DNA from: Ardenticatenia bacterium | GTDB taxonomy: Bacteria; Chloroflexota; Anaerolineae; 4572-78; NAK82 | DNA length: 64,000 bases | NCBI GenBank assembly: GCA_003130875.1 | Contig: QEXY01000005.1 | Span: forward strand, 14,799-78,798 | Direction of reading: 5' to 3' | In this document: positions 5,968 to 55,689 of the stretch, piece after piece | Position numbering within the stretch: position 1 is the stretch's first letter | Layout: every line of letters begins with the position of its first letter | Notes under the pieces: generated by a model | The model's input: only the letters and a program-made list of their open reading frames with translations | Databases searched by the model: none | Told to the model about the DNA's origin: nothing | Made by a program: the position numbers and the translations under genes

Positions 5968-7254
5968 ATGAGCGCACAGCCAAGTGATAAGATGTCTGAT
6001 AGCACCACCCAGAGTGGTAAAGCCTCAAGCAGTTTCCCTCGCACGACACTGATAGTCGGTGTCGGTATCGGTGGATTGATCATCGGGATTGTCATCGGTT
6101 GGCTGGCAATCGGCTGGTTGCTTTGGCCGGTGGAATACGTCGGAGAGGCGTATACCTATGAGCTGAGCTTGCCGGACAAGGTCAACTACGTAGCGGCGCT
6201 GACCGATTCCTACAGTTTGCGCCGTCAAATTGACCTGATACACCGCCAGCTTCTTAACTGGCCACTTGAGGACAAGGTGATGGCATTCGCCGAGCTGTAC
6301 GCGCAGTACGAACGTGATGGCATGGCGGTGGAAGCCCGTCAGGTCGTGGAGTTGGCGGGGCAGCTCAAGCAAGTGGAAGGTTGGGATGCCAGCCTTGTCA
6401 ATACAGCGCTCAGCAACTTGGTGGCACGTTATTTTGAGAAGGGTGACCGAGAGCACGCTAAGTTTATCAGTCTGTTCGGCGATGAGCTCGGATTGATACC
6501 TGTCTCGTCAGGTGAAGAGGTGGTAATTCCGACATCTCAGTCACCGGCGGCGGTGAGTGCGGTGATTGCAACACAGTGGCCTATCATCCTGGTCGTGATG
6601 ATCGTCTTTGTTGTTCTTGCAGCGTTTGGGGTGTATTGGTTGAAGATCCGCCGTGTTCGTGGCGTGCCCGGCCTCATGCGCGGTGGCACCGAGTCGTCTT
6701 GGGTCGCACCATCGGAACCAGGAACTTTGCTTTCTGCACGCAGTGTTTATGAGCTGGGCATGGACAATTTTGACGAATCCTTTTCGATCGAAGAAGGGGG
6801 AGTCTTCAAGGGCGAGTGTGGTATGGGTATTTCCGAGACCATCGGACAGGATAGACCACGCAAGGTGACAGCTCTTGAGATATGGCTGTTCGACAAAGGT
6901 GACATCCGCACGATCACCAAAGTTCTGGCAAGCGAATATGCTTACCAAGAGGATGTCCTACGCAATCGGCTGTCGGCACGTGGCGAGACTTTTCTTGTTC
7001 AACCTGGCATGACATTTGCGCTGGAGACCGCCAAACTCGCCCTCAAAGCTACCGTCCTGGATGTGGAGTACGGTGAAAGCACAGACGTACCACCCCGAAG
7101 CTTCTTCAAGAAGGTGAGTGTCGCGCTCTCGGTGCGCCCAAGAGCAACGATTATGGAAGAAGAAGTGTCACCAGAGGAGGGTGTATCTCCTCTGGACGAG
7201 TCAGCTGAGCAAGAAACAAACGCGCGTGAACAAGAACTAGAAGATCGAACTTAG
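5968..7254 (+). CDS. Hypothetical two-TM membrane protein
   Basis: I shortened the 5890 ORF to the in-frame ATG at 5968, which has a good SD. TM helices are LIVGVGIGGLIIGIVIGWLAIGWLLW and WPIILVVMIVFVVLAAFGVYWL. I recognise no family. Confidence 0.6.
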   Translation: MSAQPSDKMSDSTTQSGKASSSFPRTTLIVGVGIGGLIIGIVIGWLAIGWLLWPVEYVGEAYTYELSLPDKVNYVAALTDSYSLRRQIDLIHRQLLNWPLEDKVMAFAELYAQYERDGMAVEARQVVELAGQLKQVEGWDASLVNTALSNLVARYFEKGDREHAKFISLFGDELGLIPVSSGEEVVIPTSQSPAAVSAVIATQWPIILVVMIVFVVLAAFGVYWLKIRRVRGVPGLMRGGTESSWVAPSEPGTLLSARSVYELGMDNFDESFSIEEGGVFKGECGMGISETIGQDRPRKVTALEIWLFDKGDIRTITKVLASEYAYQEDVLRNRLSARGETFLVQPGMTFALETAKLALKATVLDVEYGESTDVPPRSFFKKVSVALSVRPRATIMEEEVSPEEGVSPLDESAEQETNAREQELEDRT

Positions 7255-7278
7255 GTTGGAATCGAAACAACGGTCGCC

Positions 7279-8457
7279 CTATACGCGTTCCAAAGGGTCG
7301 AACAGCTTTTGGTATTCCTGTTGGGCGAAACGATCCGTCATACCAGCCAAATAGTCGCAGATGATACGCTCTGGACTTTCACAGGTATCGTGACCGTGAC
7401 GCGCTCGGATCACCCGTTCTTGCACCTGTTCGGGTAGCAACCACGGCTCTGCCAAGTAGAGACGGAAGAGACGCGAAAGCAGACGCTGTGCTTTGCTTGC
7501 CATGCGCATGACGCGCCAGTGACGGTAAAGGTTGTGATACAAAAAGTCCTTTATCTCGCGATTGTGACGTTGCATAGCCTGACTGTGAGCCACAACGTTT
7601 TCAGGCAGGGCGCGAATATCATCAGGAGAGCATGTGTGACAATCCTGCAATCGTTCGTCGGTTGCGGCGATTAAATCGGTCACTTCTTGGCCGATCATAC
7701 GGCGAATGATGCGGTGGCGGTCCAGTTCAGAAAGACCTGTGGCCACATCGATGTCCAGCGCATGGACGATCTCGCCCCATAGGGTCACTTCCCTCAGTTG
7801 ACGGGGCAGAAGCAAACCGGAGCGCAACCCATCATCCAAGTCTGATGTGATGTAAGCGATCTCGTCAGCAGCATTAACAATTTGACATTCCAATGTGCCG
7901 CGATGGCACGGTTCCTCGGAGGTGGCAGGGGGGCAATCGTATTCCGTCTCGTGTTTCATGATACCCTCACGCACTTCCCAGGAGAGGTTGAGCCCATCGA
8001 ACTCAGGGAAGCGTTTTTCTAGCCTTTCAACGATGCGTAAGCTTTGTATATTGTGGTCGAATCCACCGTGGTCTTTCATAAGCGTGTTGAGGGTGGCTTC
8101 CCCGCTGTGGCCAAAAGGACCGTGCCCCAGATCGTGTGCCAGACAGATGGCTTCTGTCAGGTCCTCGTTGGCGCGCAGCGCCCGCGCAATGGTGCGCCCA
8201 ATTTGGGCAACCTCCAAAGTGTGGGTGAGGCGTGTGCGGTAGTAATCACCCTCGCTGGTGATGAACACTTGTGTTTTGTATTCTAATCTTCGGAAGGCGG
8301 TGGTATGCAGGATGCGATCACGGTCGCGTTGATAAACAGTACGGTAAGCATGCTCGTCTTCGGGGTATTCGCGTCCTCGCGTGTAGCGACTTTTCATCGC
8401 ATAAGGTGCCAGGTGTTCGATCTCGTATTGTTCCAGCTCTTCACGTGACACAATCAT
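7279..8457 (-). CDS. dgt: dGTP triphosphohydrolase-like HD-domain protein
   Basis: 392 aa. It has the HD motif LAHDLGHGPFGH, RTRLTHTLEV and the C-terminal DYLAGMTD pattern of dGTPase-like proteins. Confidence 0.85.
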   Translation of the reverse strand: MIVSREELEQYEIEHLAPYAMKSRYTRGREYPEDEHAYRTVYQRDRDRILHTTAFRRLEYKTQVFITSEGDYYRTRLTHTLEVAQIGRTIARALRANEDLTEAICLAHDLGHGPFGHSGEATLNTLMKDHGGFDHNIQSLRIVERLEKRFPEFDGLNLSWEVREGIMKHETEYDCPPATSEEPCHRGTLECQIVNAADEIAYITSDLDDGLRSGLLLPRQLREVTLWGEIVHALDIDVATGLSELDRHRIIRRMIGQEVTDLIAATDERLQDCHTCSPDDIRALPENVVAHSQAMQRHNREIKDFLYHNLYRHWRVMRMASKAQRLLSRLFRLYLAEPWLLPEQVQERVIRARHGHDTCESPERIICDYLAGMTDRFAQQEYQKLFDPLERV

Positions 8458-8566
8458 AAGTAATTCCTCCGGACAAAAATCTCAGGCCGCGTGCCGTGCA
8501 ATGGTTATGCTTTATGATATCCAATAATATCGTATTATGTAAGTTCATCGCAGCTAATGGGAGGAG

Positions 8567-9430
8567 GTGACGTCAATGAAGTCTTGTGCAAACAGAGGAA
8601 CGGGGCTTCTCGGAAGGACATGGAAAGGGCTGGCGGTGCTCCTGTGTGCAGTTATCTTAGTATGGGCGTCTCTGCCGATGGCAACCGCTCATGCCCAGGA
8701 TGGTGTTGTCTATGTCGTGCAGCCCGGCGACACATTAACTGGCATTGCAGCACGCTATGGCATTTCGCTGGCCCGGCTGGCCGCTGCGAACGGGCTGCGT
8801 TGGAATGCGTGGGTGTATGTCGGACAACGACTCATCATCCCAGGTGCAGCGCCAATACCCGGTGCACCCTCTGTTCCGAGCGGGAGCACCTATGTAGTAC
8901 AGCGTGGAGATACGCTCTCCTCGATTGCATTGCGTTATGGCACGACAGTGGCCGCTTTAATGGCGGCGAACCGGCTGGCAAACCCTAACTTCATTTACGT
9001 CGGTCAGCGGCTGGTGATACCCAGCAGTGTCGCAGCACCGACTCCAGTACCTCCCACTCCACCTGTGGCGGACTATGGTGGTAAGTGGATTGATGTAGAT
9101 CTGACCCATCAGGTCTTACGTGCTTATGCCGGGCAAACGTTGGTGTTTCAGACACTCGTCTCCACAGGTCTGCCAGCGACACCCACTGTTATGGGCACCT
9201 ATCGCATTTATGCGAAATATGTCTCGGCGCCTATGTCGGGGCCAGGGTACTATCTGCCGAATGTGCCCTATATTATGTATTTCTACCGCGGATATGCCCT
9301 CCACGGCACCTATTGGCATAGCAACTTTGGCCGGCCGATGAGTCACGGCTGTGTTAATCTTTCGGTTGCAGATGCGGAGTGGCTGTTTAACTGGGCAGAG
9401 GTGGGAACACCTGTGGTGGTACATTACTGA
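8567..9430 (+). CDS. Secreted L,D-transpeptidase (YkuD) with two LysM domains
   Basis: It has a signal peptide and two LysM repeats (YVVQPGDTLTGIAARYG, YVVQRGDTLSSIALRYG). The YkuD catalytic segment is YALHGTYWHSNFGRPMSHGCVNL. Confidence 0.85.
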   Translation: MTSMKSCANRGTGLLGRTWKGLAVLLCAVILVWASLPMATAHAQDGVVYVVQPGDTLTGIAARYGISLARLAAANGLRWNAWVYVGQRLIIPGAAPIPGAPSVPSGSTYVVQRGDTLSSIALRYGTTVAALMAANRLANPNFIYVGQRLVIPSSVAAPTPVPPTPPVADYGGKWIDVDLTHQVLRAYAGQTLVFQTLVSTGLPATPTVMGTYRIYAKYVSAPMSGPGYYLPNVPYIMYFYRGYALHGTYWHSNFGRPMSHGCVNLSVADAEWLFNWAEVGTPVVVHY

Positions 9431-10429
9431 TCAGGGAAGCCATTGAGTCAATAGCTGTTGCTCGATCACGTCTACTGGAACGCGTGACAAACGCCGTATC
9501 GCGTGTCGTTTCTTCAGCCAATGGGGTAATCCCAGCAATCCTGCCAGCTGGCCGAGTAACCGGGCACGTGCCGCTTCACCTTTCCAGGCTCTGAGCGCTT
9601 CGTGGGCAATACGCCATTGCGCATAGACCACCTTCCGCCAGTGCCGTCGCCACAATGCCTCGGGATAATTCTTCGCCAGCACCCAGATGGTGTTACGTCC
9701 GGTGAAATAGCTGGCGATCTTGCCTCCGCCTGTGGCACTCAACTTGTGGTAAACCACTGCCTGAGGCACGAAGATGCATCGGTAGCCGGCCAACTGGGCA
9801 CGCCAATTTAGATCGACATCTTCGCAATACATGAACAGCTCTTCATCGAAAAAACCGATGTCCTCGAGCATTTCGCGGCGGTAGAGCGCTGCTCCACCGC
9901 ACGCGCCCCACACATACTCCTCTCGATCGAATTGTCCCTCATCTCGTTGCCACACACCACGGTTGACCGGAATACCGTCGATGCTGTACATATCCCCAGC
10001 TGAGTGGAGCACATCCCGTCGATCGAACAACAGGATTTTGCTGGCGGCCATCCCTGCTTCAGGGTGCTTCTGCAAAGCATGGACCAGTTGGTTCGCCCAT
10101 GTGGGTGTCACTTGAGTGTCGTTGTTAAGCGAAGCGATGAGCTCGCCGCGAGCCAGTTGGAAACCTCGATTCATGGCGCCTGTGAGCCCCACATTTCGTT
10201 CCAACACCAATGTGCGCACTTCTGGGTAGCGCGTTCTCAGCAACTCCTGTGACTCATCTGCAGAGGCATTGTCTACGACGATAACCTCCATCCGTAGGTA
10301 AGACTGTTCGCGCAACGCGTCGAGACAGGTCGGCAGGTGACGAGCCCCGTTCCAATTTGGAATAATCACCGAGAGCAAGGGAGTATCAGTACTGGATTGC
10401 ATAACGCGGATGGGCCTCATAGGAGGCAA
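9431..10429 (-). CDS. Family 2 glycosyltransferase
   Basis: The N-terminus LSVIIPNWNGARHLPTCLDAL...VIVVDNASAD is typical of GT2. Confidence 0.8.
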   Translation of the reverse strand: MPPMRPIRVMQSSTDTPLLSVIIPNWNGARHLPTCLDALREQSYLRMEVIVVDNASADESQELLRTRYPEVRTLVLERNVGLTGAMNRGFQLARGELIASLNNDTQVTPTWANQLVHALQKHPEAGMAASKILLFDRRDVLHSAGDMYSIDGIPVNRGVWQRDEGQFDREEYVWGACGGAALYRREMLEDIGFFDEELFMYCEDVDLNWRAQLAGYRCIFVPQAVVYHKLSATGGGKIASYFTGRNTIWVLAKNYPEALWRRHWRKVVYAQWRIAHEALRAWKGEAARARLLGQLAGLLGLPHWLKKRHAIRRLSRVPVDVIEQQLLTQWLP

Positions 10430-52173: not shown

Positions 52174-53940
52174 TCACTGTCGGCTTCCCTTGTGAGAATT
52201 CTTTGGATTCAGGTGCATTTGAAGCGCTTCCCTGATCCATGGGACAACATTGGGCATAGCCACCTTGATCACCTCACCGCTGTGTCGCCACTTCACCTCG
52301 ACCGTGCCTTCTGAGATGCCGCGTTCTCCAACGGCAAGGCGCAGTGGTAGTCCGATCAGGTCGGCATCGTGAAATTTCACCCCCGCCCTTTCATCCCGGT
52401 CGTCGTACAATACACGCACCCCTGCCTTGTGGAGCTCGGTGTGTAACCTGTCCGCCACCTCGCTCACCTCGGGACTGTGCCGGCCCAATGTCATCAGATA
52501 GACGTCGTACGGAGCCATAAAAGCAGGCCATATCAGACCCATTGCGTCGTGATGGATTTCAGCCACTGCCGCAATCAAACGATCTATATAGAAACGGTAG
52601 CGAGCCAGCAAAACCGGCCGTGTCGTGCCGGATGGATCGAGATAAGCCACGTGGTATGCCTGGGCGGCTGCATGATCCAAACCGCCTACGACCCCCAGCT
52701 CGACCCCATGTTCCAGCTGCAGCGATGTGGTACAGGAGGGACAGAGATCACCCGCTTGTGCCATAGCGATGTCTGCGGTATAGCTCGCCTGATAATCACG
52801 ACCGTAGTTAACATTTAACAGGTGATAGCCCGACCGGTTGGCACCCGCAACCAGGTTGGGAGAATGTACAACCAGGTGATCCACCACCACTTGGGCTCCC
52901 GTGATGCCAAGTGGTGAACCGTATCCCGGCTCTGCACCGAGTGCTCTGATTTCTTCCTCTGTGGCTGGCCGTAAGTTGGGTACACCGAGCAGGCGCTTCA
53001 GCTTGAGTGGGCTGAGCTCGGTGTCGCCCCGCACCACTGCGATGACAGGACGCTTGACGGTCTCCCTTTCTTCTGCTACTAGAAACAAGGACTTTGCCGT
53101 GCGGGATGGTGAAATCTGCAGCCAGGTGCACAACGCGGCGATCGTTTTGCAATCCGGCGTGGCCACTTCCTGCAATGGCTGCGGTGACTCGGCGGATAAA
53201 GCAGGTTTCCTGACCGGTGCAATGGTCTGATCACATGTCCAACCGCATCCGCTGCAGATGAGAAGCGCGTATTCGCCACGCTCCCATGGCCAGATCAACC
53301 GGTACGCGGTCGGATGTCCTGCTGCATTAACATCAACTATGACACGACGGACCGATATCTCCGCACGTTCGATCAAGTCCACCCAGCCATCCAGGACGTT
53401 GCGCAACCATCCATCCAAGTCCTCTTCGTCTGAGTGGAAGCTGTAGGCGTCCAACACCATCGCCTCGCGGCTGGCAAGCAAACCCCATGTGGTTCGTATT
53501 TCAGGCTCAGGCGCCTGCCAGAATAGGTACAACAGAACAGGCAGCTGGCGATAGGATTGGACGAGGTTTCTCGAAAGGGTCAGTATCAGCGGCTCATGAC
53601 CGGGTAGGAGTGCCCAGGTGCGATATTCTTCTGCACCACAAGTCACCGCGTGCTGTAACGGAGCGGCCCAGCCCGGGAATGTCCCTGTGGCCTGTCCTTC
53701 CATCACTTCGAGTGGCTGCAACACCGGTAAGCCGACCTCCTGGCTACCCCATTCTTCCATAAGGTGCGCTAAGGTACGTTGCAGTTGCTGGCGCACCTGG
53801 ACTCCCAACGGCAGAAAAACATGCGCGCCCGACGAAATGGAGCGCACGAAGCCGCCGCGCAGCAGAAACTGATAGCCCGGCAACGCGATATCGGTTGAGG
53901 CTTGGCGCATGGTCTGGAAGAGTAGTTGGCTGATCCGCAT
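52174..53940 (-). CDS. Bacterial-type prolyl-tRNA synthetase homolog with degenerate catalytic motifs (predicted non-aminoacylating). The INS editing and anticodon-binding domains are retained.
   Basis: It is colinear with E. coli ProRS as I recall that sequence (MRISQLLFQT..., INS with TAKSLFLV and GANRSGYHLLNVNYGRD, C-terminal YDDRDERAGVKFHDADLIGLP). Motif 2 FRDEVRPRFG..REF reads PEPEIRTTWG..REA. GHIFQLGTKYS reads GVVGGLDHAAA. Motif 3 CYGIGVTR reads RYRFYIDR. Confidence 0.75.
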   Translation of the reverse strand: MRISQLLFQTMRQASTDIALPGYQFLLRGGFVRSISSGAHVFLPLGVQVRQQLQRTLAHLMEEWGSQEVGLPVLQPLEVMEGQATGTFPGWAAPLQHAVTCGAEEYRTWALLPGHEPLILTLSRNLVQSYRQLPVLLYLFWQAPEPEIRTTWGLLASREAMVLDAYSFHSDEEDLDGWLRNVLDGWVDLIERAEISVRRVIVDVNAAGHPTAYRLIWPWERGEYALLICSGCGWTCDQTIAPVRKPALSAESPQPLQEVATPDCKTIAALCTWLQISPSRTAKSLFLVAEERETVKRPVIAVVRGDTELSPLKLKRLLGVPNLRPATEEEIRALGAEPGYGSPLGITGAQVVVDHLVVHSPNLVAGANRSGYHLLNVNYGRDYQASYTADIAMAQAGDLCPSCTTSLQLEHGVELGVVGGLDHAAAQAYHVAYLDPSGTTRPVLLARYRFYIDRLIAAVAEIHHDAMGLIWPAFMAPYDVYLMTLGRHSPEVSEVADRLHTELHKAGVRVLYDDRDERAGVKFHDADLIGLPLRLAVGERGISEGTVEVKWRHSGEVIKVAMPNVVPWIREALQMHLNPKNSHKGSRQ

Positions 53941-54011
53941 AGAATATTACTCCTGATCTAGGGTATCCTTCGCGCCTTGACGGATGGCAACATCACGCTT
54001 ATAAAGGAATT

Positions 54012-54497
54012 ATGACCGCTGCCAAGGATAAAACTAACGCATTGCGTCTCCTGGAAGCGCACCATGTTTCACATCAGATCTTCACTTTCTCGCCTGAGAT
54101 CCACTCCGCCGTAGAAGTGGCTCAGGTGCTCGGCTTACCGCCCCACGAGGTGTACAAAACGCTCGTGGTGCTGCGCTCACAAGGCCGGCCTCTGTTGGTG
54201 ATGATCGCCGGCGACTGTGAACTCGATCTCAAGCGCGTTGCCGCTGCCCTGGGTGAGAAAAAAGTGCGCATGGCAACCCAACGCGAGGCGGAAAATTTGA
54301 CCGGTCTCCAAGTGGGTGGCATCTCCGCCTTGGCCTTGTTGGGCCGCCCCTTTGACGTGTTCATCGACCGTTCGGCACTGGCACTCCAGCACATTGTGGT
54401 GAGCGCCGGGAAACGCGGTATGAACGTGCGCCTAGCCGTGGATGATTTGTTGCGTGTGACACGTGCCCGTGTCATCGAAGCAACCACAACCGGATGA
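54012..54497 (+). CDS. ybaK: Cys-tRNA(Pro)/Cys-tRNA(Cys) deacylase YbaK
   Basis: 161 aa. The key contexts are conserved: YKTLVV (catalytic Lys), GGISAL and SAGKRG. Confidence 0.85.
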   Translation: MTAAKDKTNALRLLEAHHVSHQIFTFSPEIHSAVEVAQVLGLPPHEVYKTLVVLRSQGRPLLVMIAGDCELDLKRVAAALGEKKVRMATQREAENLTGLQVGGISALALLGRPFDVFIDRSALALQHIVVSAGKRGMNVRLAVDDLLRVTRARVIEATTTG

Positions 54498-54501
54498 GCG
54501 C

Positions 54502-55689
54502 TCATGGCAAGAGCGCCGCCATAGTGCGGCGCGCAATGGACATCGCTGCCGAGCGATTTTCTTCATCCTCAAGCACCAAGGCAAAAGCCACCTGGGGATG
54601 GGTGGCCGGCGCGTAGCCCACCAACCAAGTAAGAGAAGCACGGCCTGTTTCCACTGGCAATGCTACGCCGATCCAGCTCGCTATCCCGTCGTAAGCCGGT
54701 GTGAGAGCTCGCAGGGTGTGCGCGACATTCTCAGAGAAGACACGCTCCATCCCAGCCAGCTCTGTGGAATGTTGTAGCACAGGTACAGGCATCTGCCCAT
54801 CTCCGGCCACAGCTGCGGCAAAACGGGCCATGTGCAGCGGGGTGACGGCCAGGTCGCGCTCGGTTGTACGTCCGTCGAAGCTGGGCAACCGACCCGAACT
54901 GGCCGGCAAAGCGATAGGGGGCGTCTGGGTGAAACCAAGCTGGTGTGCCGTGGCCACATAGCCCATCCGGCTCAGTGGCGCCAGCAAAACGGCAAGCGAA
55001 ACTTCCGATGGACGGGAAGGGGTGGTGATCCCTGCGCTGAGCAGTCCGGCCAGGCCAATCCAGCGTGCCAGATCGCCCACCGGATAGATTCCCTGGGTGG
55101 CGCGGTTTAGCAATGGAGCGGACGGGTCGGCTATCAGATCTTCCCACGTCTCATCCAGGCGGTTTGGTTCGTAAGAAGGATGACTCACCATAGCAAGCAA
55201 CGCCCCACTGGCGATGTCAAGCGCGATGAATGTGCCGATGTGGTCGCCCAACTCCGTGTCGGCGATGCGCATAGCTGTCAGGTCAGCACTCAACATGACA
55301 TCCTCACCCCGTTGGGGACGGTGGAGCAGCTCTTCCAGACGGTTGCGCTTGCCGCGCAGGATAGAATCAAACACTGCCTCGCAACCGCCGGTGCCATAGC
55401 GCAGGCTATAGTAACCCACCAGATGCGCTGTTGCTGTTTCCGGGTAATGGCGATGAAACACAGGAACGTTGCCCGGACCGTGCTCTGGCGCCGAATAGGC
55501 GAGCACCATTCCGGAACGGTCTAAGAGTCGCCCCCTTTGGATCTGTCGTTCTGCCTGGACGAGGCGCGGATTGTCCGCACGTACCACCAACTGGGGGGCC
55601 TGGATCACCTGCCAGTAAGCAAGGGCCCCTGCCACGACAAAGAAGCTCAGCAGCAATGCACGCATCAGACGGATGACGGCAACCGTCAC
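54502..55689 (-). CDS. Class B penicillin-binding-protein homolog lacking all three catalytic motifs (predicted pseudo-transpeptidase)
   Basis: It has an N-terminal TM helix and a pedestal-like region, then LLAMVSHPSYEPN and NRATQGIYPVGDLARW, where E. coli PBP2 has NRATQGVYPPASTVKP. SxN/D reads SRM and KTG/KSG reads SWIG. The C-terminal APATHPQVAFALVLE is conserved. Confidence 0.8.
   Translation of the reverse strand: MTVAVIRLMRALLLSFFVVAGALAYWQVIQAPQLVVRADNPRLVQAERQIQRGRLLDRSGMVLAYSAPEHGPGNVPVFHRHYPETATAHLVGYYSLRYGTGGCEAVFDSILRGKRNRLEELLHRPQRGEDVMLSADLTAMRIADTELGDHIGTFIALDIASGALLAMVSHPSYEPNRLDETWEDLIADPSAPLLNRATQGIYPVGDLARWIGLAGLLSAGITTPSRPSEVSLAVLLAPLSRMGYVATAHQLGFTQTPPIALPASSGRLPSFDGRTTERDLAVTPLHMARFAAAVAGDGQMPVPVLQHSTELAGMERVFSENVAHTLRALTPAYDGIASWIGVALPVETGRASLTWLVGYAPATHPQVAFALVLEDEENRSAAMSIARRTMAALLP

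Follow-up and report, generated by a model that had tools for sequence, protein, structure and literature searches.

The gene at positions 52174..53940 of the minus strand of the window, by which we mean the whole 64-kb stretch of DNA analyzed here, encodes a protein of 588 amino acid residues (aa) that is a full-length paralog of bacterial-type prolyl-tRNA synthetase (ProRS-B) with an inactivated aminoacylation site, and which we call pseudo-ProRS. The protein deduced from this open reading frame (ORF) is identical to NCBI entry PWH20852.1, the source of which is a metagenome-assembled genome (MAG) with the label Ardenticatenia bacterium, and proteins of this type are annotated as proline--tRNA ligase by NCBI and JGI. 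The window gene belongs to a widespread and conserved ProRS-B-derived paralog family in Chloroflexota that is apparently undescribed and that, as judged from the residues it has lost, is no longer capable of ATP binding or proline activation. We regard it as rather probable that pseudo-ProRS is a deacylase with specificity for tRNA(Pro), which clears Ala-tRNA(Pro) in trans while charging is left to a second, functional ProRS. The original prediction, which had been made from the DNA alone, knew of no full-length ProRS that keeps only its editing half and, similarly, full-text literature searches revealed no description of a full-length ProRS devoid of aminoacylation.

Loss of the aminoacylation motifs in the window protein

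HMMER alignments demonstrated that solved ProRS structures from S. aureus (5znj; E = 9.5e-90), E. faecalis (2j3l), and P. aeruginosa (5ucm) are colinear with the window protein over residues 1-573, as had been proposed for bacterial-type ProRS, and that the catalytic motifs are aligned without gaps. In the following, residue numbers refer to E. coli ProS, and positions preceded by aa refer to the window protein. The Pfam domain tRNA-synt_2b, which represents the class II core, scored 22.5 bits on the window protein, below its gathering cut-off of 29.3, and the NCBIfam model PRK09194 reached 400.8 bits, which is well below its cut-off of 558. With the older model TIGR00409, 337.3 bits were obtained at a cut-off of 306.7. 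The Pfam domain tRNA_edit (PF04073) was detected at aa 261-378 with 85.4 bits (cut-off 25.5; E = 4e-24) and HGTP_anticodon at aa 479-571 with 78 bits (E = 4.5e-22).

In the N-terminal half of the class II catalytic core (aa 1-228; 53257..53940, minus strand), Pro72 of motif 1 is kept, and PTHEE and elements of motif 2 are lost. The proline-binding PTHEE is replaced by PGHEP (aa 113-117; 53590..53604, minus strand), which includes the change of T109 to glycine, and both T109 and E112 are unconserved throughout the family. The remnant of motif 2, QAPEPEIRTTWGLLASREA (aa 142-160; 53461..53517, minus strand), retains R144, R153, and E154, and where E. coli ProS has FRDE...REF the window protein reads PEPE...REA, corresponding to the changes R140 to E145, R151 to A156, and F155 to A160. 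No substitute arginine is present in the alignment near position 145 of the window protein. The SHEF motif is lost as had been claimed; however, the residues aligned with it are AYRL (aa 212-215) and not TAYR, an offset of one residue. In the C-terminal part of the catalytic core (aa 404-468; 52537..52731, minus strand), EVGHIFQLGTKYS of E. coli is replaced by ELGVVGGLDHAAA (aa 414-426) and EVGHIF reads ELGVVG. The remnant of motif 3, RYRFYIDR (aa 447-454; 52579..52602, minus strand), stands in the place of E. coli CYGIGVTR and is a signature of the family; G445 is changed to arginine, G447 to tyrosine, and G449 to aspartate, and only R450 is retained. Thus the window protein conforms neither to the class II motif 3 consensus G-x-G-x-G-x-x-R nor to that of motif 2 (fRxE...REF). 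The replacements that the original prediction had listed for PTHEE, the motif-2 arginine and phenylalanine, EVGHIF, and the motif-3 glycines were all reproduced without gaps against the ProRS structures or E. coli ProS.

Conservation of the editing and anticodon-binding domains

The INS editing insertion (aa 229-403; 52732..53256, minus strand) has an intact hydrolytic pocket and is flanked by a CxxC...CxxC arrangement formed by C229, C232, C400, and C403. Within the alignment, K283 of the segment TAKSLFLV (aa 281-288; 53077..53100, minus strand) corresponds to E. coli K279, and H373 of the segment GANRSGYH (aa 366-373; 52822..52845, minus strand) corresponds to H369. Altogether, the INS domain of the window protein possesses equivalents of T257, I263, L266, K279, D350, and H369 as well as the GAN segment, and we take T257, I263, and D350 to be residues of the INS pocket. 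The anticodon-binding domain (ABD; aa 469-573; 52222..52536, minus strand), which contains the HGTP_anticodon match, is fully conserved. Conservation of motif 1, of INS with its K279 equivalent and GAN segment, and of the ABD, as initially noted, is therefore borne out by the Pfam matches and by the column comparison described below. In the literature, roles in INS have been described for K279, L266, and H369 (PMC3973320 and a preprint), with K279A serving as the standard editing-defective ProRS mutant (PMC3973320 and a preprint) and H369 as gatekeeper against the hydrolysis of Pro-tRNA(Pro) (a preprint).

In order to be called canonical-invariant, a position had to be at least 97% invariant in canonical ProRS of Anaerolineae. 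The window protein retained 53 of 130 such positions (41%) in the catalytic core, 48 of 59 (81%) in INS, and 26 of 29 (90%) in the ABD (Fisher p = 1.3e-10).

The four cysteines around INS are invariant in the pseudo-ProRS family as well as in canonical ProRS-B of Anaerolineae, and they are absent from E. coli ProS. They may form a zinc site specific to this lineage where INS joins the catalytic core.

A conserved paralog family

Among the 120 best relatives of the window protein (42-75% identity), which are labelled Anaerolineae, Ardenticatenia, or Chloroflexi wherever a source name exists, 118 carry a dead motif 3, and only P0114 and P0118 are canonical. In the family, motif 3 takes the form Y-R-[LVF]-[YH]-x-D-R and GGLFGARE replaces GLIRVREF. 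At 90% identity, more than 118 clusters with the same architecture exist. A DNA pattern corresponding to Y-R/S-x3-D-R/S-x2-AA-x2-E...WP matched eight pseudo-family loci (seven distinct sequences) and missed locus L006, and it gave 0 matches in the remaining ProRS-B loci of this set. Applied to metagenomes, the pattern retrieved 28 loci, among them L101, which is described below.

For comparison, a canonical set was defined by the best 120 matches to P0118, which are ProRS-B proteins 69-77% identical to it and, where named, bear the label Anaerolineae or Chloroflexi; the catalytic positions compared are at least 97% conserved across this set. In a column-by-column comparison of 118 pseudo-ProRS members with 123 canonical proteins, the equivalents of T257, I263, L266, K279, D350, and H369, the GAN segment, and R299-G-D of INS were kept in about 100% of the pseudo-ProRS members. 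The same degree of conservation applies to the ABD signature DDR..G.KF.DADL.G.P.R with E545, K547, and R549, and also to P72 of motif 1, Y125/Q127/L128/P129, R153/E154, R450, and the four cysteines flanking INS. Lost or relaxed in the pseudo-ProRS family are T109, E112, E209, E410 (kept in 44%), G412, H413, and F415. R140 is kept in 63% of the members and F155 in 0%, R151 is now glycine, and G447 has become tyrosine or histidine. Such variability of active-site positions among the members is incompatible with an essential ligase.

Mean pairwise identity in the catalytic core was 0.49 for the pseudo-ProRS family compared to 0.80 for canonical proteins. For INS it amounted to 0.70 in both groups, and for the ABD to 0.62 in the pseudo-ProRS family and 0.60 in the canonical one. 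These sequence comparisons support domain-specific purifying selection in the pseudo-ProRS family.

In neighbour-joining analysis, the pseudo-ProRS family formed one clade in 100 of 100 bootstraps, from which L008 and L034 had been left out due to absurd branch lengths, and the same clade was obtained from INS and ABD columns alone. Branches within the family are longer than canonical ones, and the placement of the clade relative to the canonical clade is left unsettled by these trees.

Predicted structure of pseudo-ProRS

An AlphaFold2 model of the window protein, calculated with the family alignment, had a predicted local distance difference test (pLDDT) value of 91.3 and a predicted template modelling (pTM) score of 0.90, with confidence falling only at residues 80-110 and in the C-terminal tail. 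When compared by Foldseek, the model matched the ProRS of E. faecalis (2j3l) with TM scores of 0.87-0.90 over 573 columns. This match to a full ProRS indicates that the dead core would remain a folded class II domain, and pseudo-ProRS probably dimerizes like ProRS.

Other ProRS genes and decayed copies of ProRS-B

The partner ProRS of pseudo-ProRS could be either a ProRS-A or a canonical ProRS-B. ProRS-A is the archaeal-type enzyme of about 480 aa without INS, and lacking INS makes it the most attractive partner; an archaeal-type, INS-less ProRS as the working enzyme, which the original prediction had considered possible, is plausible. In a mixed GTDB search with pseudo-ProRS and canonical sequences, which covered at least 80 loci in 80 assemblies, no two of the matches listed came from the same genome. 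Chloroflexota frequently possess both kinds of ProRS: an intact ProRS-A adjoins a ProRS-B in six Chloroflexota-labelled GTDB loci (L019, L029, L033, L052, L060, and L062), and the ProRS-A proteins of L019, L029, L033, and L060 scored 548-576 bits with TIGR00408 (cut-off 437). In Anaerolineales, ProRS-A is highly conserved (84-96% identity).

Several ProRS-B copies show partial decay of the aminoacylation site. In L029, where it lies beside the intact ProRS-A, ProRS-B has THE changed to AYQ in the proline-binding motif. The ProRS-B of L011 (908-2701) reads GAREA and YRIELGR, a G445R-type change without G449D, and the one of L073 carries three lesions. In L101, ProRS-B (6660-8360) has AYD, R140H, and YRMEIDR, and it is followed by an intact ProRS-A gene (8357-9835; 619 bits with TIGR00408) whose start overlaps the stop codon of ProRS-B. 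In one further intermediate type, YRLPLDR occurs together with a motif 2 that is otherwise intact. All of these intermediates (L011, L073, and the divergent decayed copies L101, L103, L109, and L097) fall outside the core pseudo-ProRS clade. A ProRS-A located beside a ProRS-B with decayed site was encountered only outside the core family (L101 and L029). It seems that decay of ProRS-B beside ProRS-A happened more than once, although, by its design, the pattern used in the search favored copies with the R/D motif.

Two further ProRS-B sequences, in L089 (3157-4848) and L115 (3985-5676), were retrieved through the serine codon in the DNA pattern. Both keep THE and FRDE, have YSIGLDR as motif 3, and show REI in place of REF, but otherwise resemble canonical ProRS-B; they may be active variants or represent early decay.

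Genomic neighbourhoods of pseudo-ProRS genes

Divergent to the pseudo-ProRS gene, and separated from it by an intergenic region of 71 bp (53941..54011, from the ORF coordinates), lies an intact ybaK gene (54012..54497, plus strand) for a homolog of Cys-tRNA(Pro) deacylase of 161 aa, as the original prediction had reported. Its product gave 104 bits with Pfam tRNA_edit and 143.1 bits with TIGR00011, just below the cut-off of 153.25. The best PDB matches were YbaK of E. coli (2dxa) and of H. influenzae (1dbu), with the lysine of VYKTL aligned. In the 71-bp gap, no consensus promoter and no Rfam element or T-box were found, nor was a tRNA gene associated with the pseudo-ProRS gene.

Pairing with ybaK occurs only in the subclade of the window, that is, in the window itself, L004 (P0005, on a 481-kb contig), L006 (a MAG from the GTDB collection labelled Ardenticatenia, with 63% identity to the window protein), and L114. 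Where the flanks are visible, the gene order in this subclade comprises PNP, RodA, and a protein resembling penicillin-binding protein 2 (PBP2), then ybaK divergent from pseudo-ProRS, and RodZ; rodZ was undetected in L006.

In ten loci (L005, L007, L087, L088/L104, L094, L096, L098, L106, L110, and L111), a gene for a polytopic membrane protein of the DUF5656 family (PF18900) lies directly upstream of the pseudo-ProRS gene on the same strand at a distance of 20-50 bp. The ribosomal cluster L11-L1-L10-L12, VanW, and Zincin_1 are located upstream of this DUF5656/pseudo-ProRS pair. A fixed downstream set, consisting of a metallophosphoesterase-like gene for 313 aa, AA_permease_2, and NTP_transf_5, was observed in eight loci (L005, L086, L092, L094, L096, L102, L106, and L113). 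The window's own subclade has no DUF5656 or permease neighbours.

Positional orthology with canonical ProRS-B was considered and rejected, as canonical loci share no pseudo-family neighbourhood. The neighbourhoods being distinct, the pseudo-ProRS gene is a paralog in a setting of its own and not a positional replacement.

The PBP2/PbpA-like protein encoded beside RodA in the window (54502-55689, minus strand) reads GDLAR where the aligned PDB structure 4mnr has GSTFK (S-x-x-K), and the same substitution occurs in three orthologs (L004, 7780-9432; L006, 8255-9445; L114, 7894-9546). From its sequence, the PBP2-like protein of this RodA-PBP2-RodZ cluster appears to be a penicillin-binding protein that is conserved but devoid of catalytic activity.

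Discussion

The loss of aminoacylation residues together with the retention of INS and ABD residues is best read as an editing-only, tRNA(Pro)-directed role. In known ProRSs, INS hydrolyzes Ala-tRNA(Pro), and specificity comes from recognition of G35/G36 by the ABD some 70 Å away (PMC3973320; PMC11295145). In bacteria with an INS-less ProRS, ProXp-ala is the trans factor (PMC3973320; PMC11295145). In the mechanism that we propose, tRNA(Pro) mischarged by a separate ProRS, most plausibly the INS-less ProRS-A common in this class, would be bound at its anticodon through the retained ABD, and the INS domain of pseudo-ProRS would hydrolyze the Ala-tRNA(Pro). As INS does not recognize tRNA by itself and depends on the ABD about 70 Å away, the dead core would be needed as the scaffold that joins both. 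An editing-only descendant of ProRS-B would thus be expected to keep INS, ABD, and the intervening core, and binding of ATP and proline would be free to go. In the subclade of the window, pseudo-ProRS and YbaK might jointly clear Ala- and Cys-tRNA(Pro), with pseudo-ProRS possibly serving as the ProRS-tRNA docking platform for YbaK, which has no tRNA specificity of its own and needs a ternary complex with ProRS (PMC3973320; PMC11295145). However, the pairing with ybaK is limited to this subclade and presentation to YbaK can therefore not be the general function of the family. Thus, of the initial suggestion of an editing-only or tRNA(Pro)-recruiting protein, the editing-only part is supported by the dead site and intact modules throughout the family, and YbaK presentation as a general role is not.

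Several observations weigh against a deacylase acting beside another ProRS. When all ORFs of the 64-kb window were searched with canonical ProRS using phmmer, only the gene itself was matched and no second ProRS was found. Also, neither ProRS-A nor canonical ProRS-B is present in the visible flanks of about 35 core-family loci. Among records labelled Anaerolineae, canonical ProRS-B with a fully intact INS occurs in large numbers and, if it coexisted with pseudo-ProRS, a role in Ala-tRNA(Pro) editing would be redundant, at least partly. Subclades other than that of the window have no nearby ybaK, and most family members show the order DUF5656, pseudo-ProRS, phosphoesterase-like protein, and amino-acid permease, and the linkage to DUF5656 and an amino-acid permease is unexplained by a pure proofreading role. 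Finally, the family has switched to new conserved residues, with G445 changed to arginine (97%), G449 to aspartate (99%), and Q136 to tryptophan (85%). Conservation of the resulting R449, D453, and W141 (numbering of the window protein) at these frequencies is more than passive decay would leave and could reflect a new ligand site.

A non-hydrolytic role as a tRNA(Pro)-binding scaffold or regulator, in which pseudo-ProRS either docks YbaK or forms a heterodimer with a working ProRS-B to provide editing or regulation, would be consistent with the retention of Pro72 of motif 1 and the surrounding interface, and trans-editing heterodimers are documented for ThrRS (PMC4787780). The divergent ybaK of the window's subclade, the requirement of a ProRS-tRNA complex for YbaK specificity, and the presence of canonical ProRS-B in the same class also fit such a role. 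However, the catalytic and specificity residues of INS are 100% conserved, which argues for selection on hydrolysis, most subclades have no ybaK neighbour, and a heterodimer would presuppose coexistence with canonical ProRS-B within one genome. We therefore consider a scaffold or heterodimer role unlikely.

More doubtful still is a new function in which the remodelled pocket, formed by W141, R449, Y/H451, and D453 of the window protein, binds a new ligand or performs new chemistry. It would account for the 85-99% frequency of the new residues at the switched positions, and G445R-type changes of motif 3 also occur outside the core clade, where G449D is found in L101, L103, and L109 but not in L011. 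The upstream DUF5656 gene, which is probably co-transcribed, the downstream genes for the phosphoesterase-like protein, AA_permease_2, and NTP_transf_5, and the location of the gene among the cell-wall genes for RodA, the apparently dead PBP2, and RodZ in the window's subclade might point to a membrane process, and synthetase cores have been reused in HisZ, AsnA, and EpmA. Specifically, the plugged and re-conserved former site might couple the status of tRNA(Pro) or proline to a membrane or transport process, which would make pseudo-ProRS a synthetase-derived sensor or adaptor of a so far undescribed kind, an idea to which we give equally little weight. With the ATP-binding residues gone, adenylate chemistry is unlikely, the amino-acid pocket differs in its residues from member to member, and the DUF5656 and permease neighbours are absent from the subclade of the window. 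For the perfect conservation of INS and ABD, tRNA editing is the simpler explanation.

That pseudo-ProRS is a still-active ProRS with an unorthodox site, possibly the only one of its genome, is very improbable. Its full length and confidently predicted ProRS fold, the TIGR00409 score above cut-off, its annotation in databases, and the window without a second ProRS would agree with an active enzyme. However, the motif-2 arginine, the adenine-stacking phenylalanine, the motif-3 glycines, T109, and EVGHIF are lost and vary within the family, PRK09194 and the Pfam core domain remain under their cut-offs, and conservation is lowest in the catalytic core, which is the reverse of the situation in real ProRSs. 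A decaying pseudogene or assembly artefact without function, as the loss of so many active-site residues might suggest, is hardly credible in view of an intact ORF of 588 aa, an identical protein on two further contigs (one from a JGI metagenome and one from a Logan run assembly), the family-wide conservation of one architecture in more than 118 clusters at 90% identity, INS and ABD conserved as in canonical enzymes, and a confident AlphaFold2 model.

For the editing in trans that we favor, the closest precedent is archaeal ThrRS-ed (NF011500, Ser-tRNA(Thr) hydrolase), which combines an editing domain with an ABD, lacks aminoacylation, and proofreads in trans as the editing partner of an editing-less ThrRS (PMC11295145 and other reviews); the NF011500 model aligns with the ABD of the window protein. 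ThrRS-ed is an archaeal protein of about 390 aa with a DTD-like editing fold that deals with Thr/Ser, whereas pseudo-ProRS is bacterial, has the INS/YbaK fold, and would deal with Pro/Ala. Also, ThrRS-ed is shortened, whereas pseudo-ProRS retains a complete but dead class II core as its scaffold. ThrRS-ed is known to occur together with a partner that lacks editing, and for pseudo-ProRS such a partner is proposed. In Anabaena, duplicated ThrRSs T1 and T2 provide another case in which one subunit contributes only editing, in trans (PMC4787780). However, T1 is conditionally inactive through the loss of zinc and its heterodimer has been shown, whereas pseudo-ProRS is genetically dead and its heterodimer is hypothetical.

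Within the INS superfamily, ProXp-ala shares with pseudo-ProRS the proposed activity, the cellular need created by an INS-less ProRS, a homologous hydrolytic fold, and the conserved lysine and histidine, but it is a single domain that reads G72/A73 of the acceptor stem, whereas for the multidomain pseudo-ProRS of 588 aa recognition of the anticodon is proposed. YbaK belongs to the same superfamily as the INS domain of pseudo-ProRS and is a single domain without tRNA specificity that acts on Cys-tRNA(Pro); unlike YbaK, the INS of pseudo-ProRS keeps the Ala-specific pocket residues of ProRS. Members of the superfamily other than the INS of ProRS are all single-domain proteins (2024 review, PMC11295145), and pseudo-ProRS is set apart from the free-standing families ProXp-ala, YbaK, and ProXp-x by its multidomain build. 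With canonical ProRS-B, such as E. coli ProS or the E. faecalis enzyme (2J3L), it has in common domain order, fold, dimer motif, and the residues of INS and ABD, but it differs in the loss of the residues binding ATP and proline, the relaxed constraint on the core, and sub-threshold scores for PRK09194 and the Pfam core. HisZ and other pseudo-synthetases are likewise class II paralogs without aminoacylation that were retained for another role. However, HisZ has no editing domain and functions in histidine biosynthesis, whereas pseudo-ProRS keeps its translation-related modules.

The annotation of pseudo-ProRS as proline--tRNA ligase can mask a missing ProRS when the completeness of genomes or their metabolism is inferred. 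As a natural separation-of-function mutant, pseudo-ProRS would be suited to the question, current in the field, of how anticodon binding 70 Å away steers INS, and it could show whether delivery of the 3' end of the tRNA to INS needs the aminoacylation site. If the proposed role is true, no other trans-editing factor of the INS superfamily before pseudo-ProRS would have been multidomain and guided by the anticodon. Some bacteria would then have divided the tasks of ProRS between a charging enzyme and a full-length proofreading enzyme, a bacterial Pro/Ala counterpart of the archaeal ThrRS/ThrRS-ed system. The series that leads from intact ProRS-A/ProRS-B pairs, by way of ProRS-B copies with few lesions (L029, L011, L073, and L101), to the fully remodelled family shows how the redundancy of two types of synthetase can be resolved into subfunctionalization.

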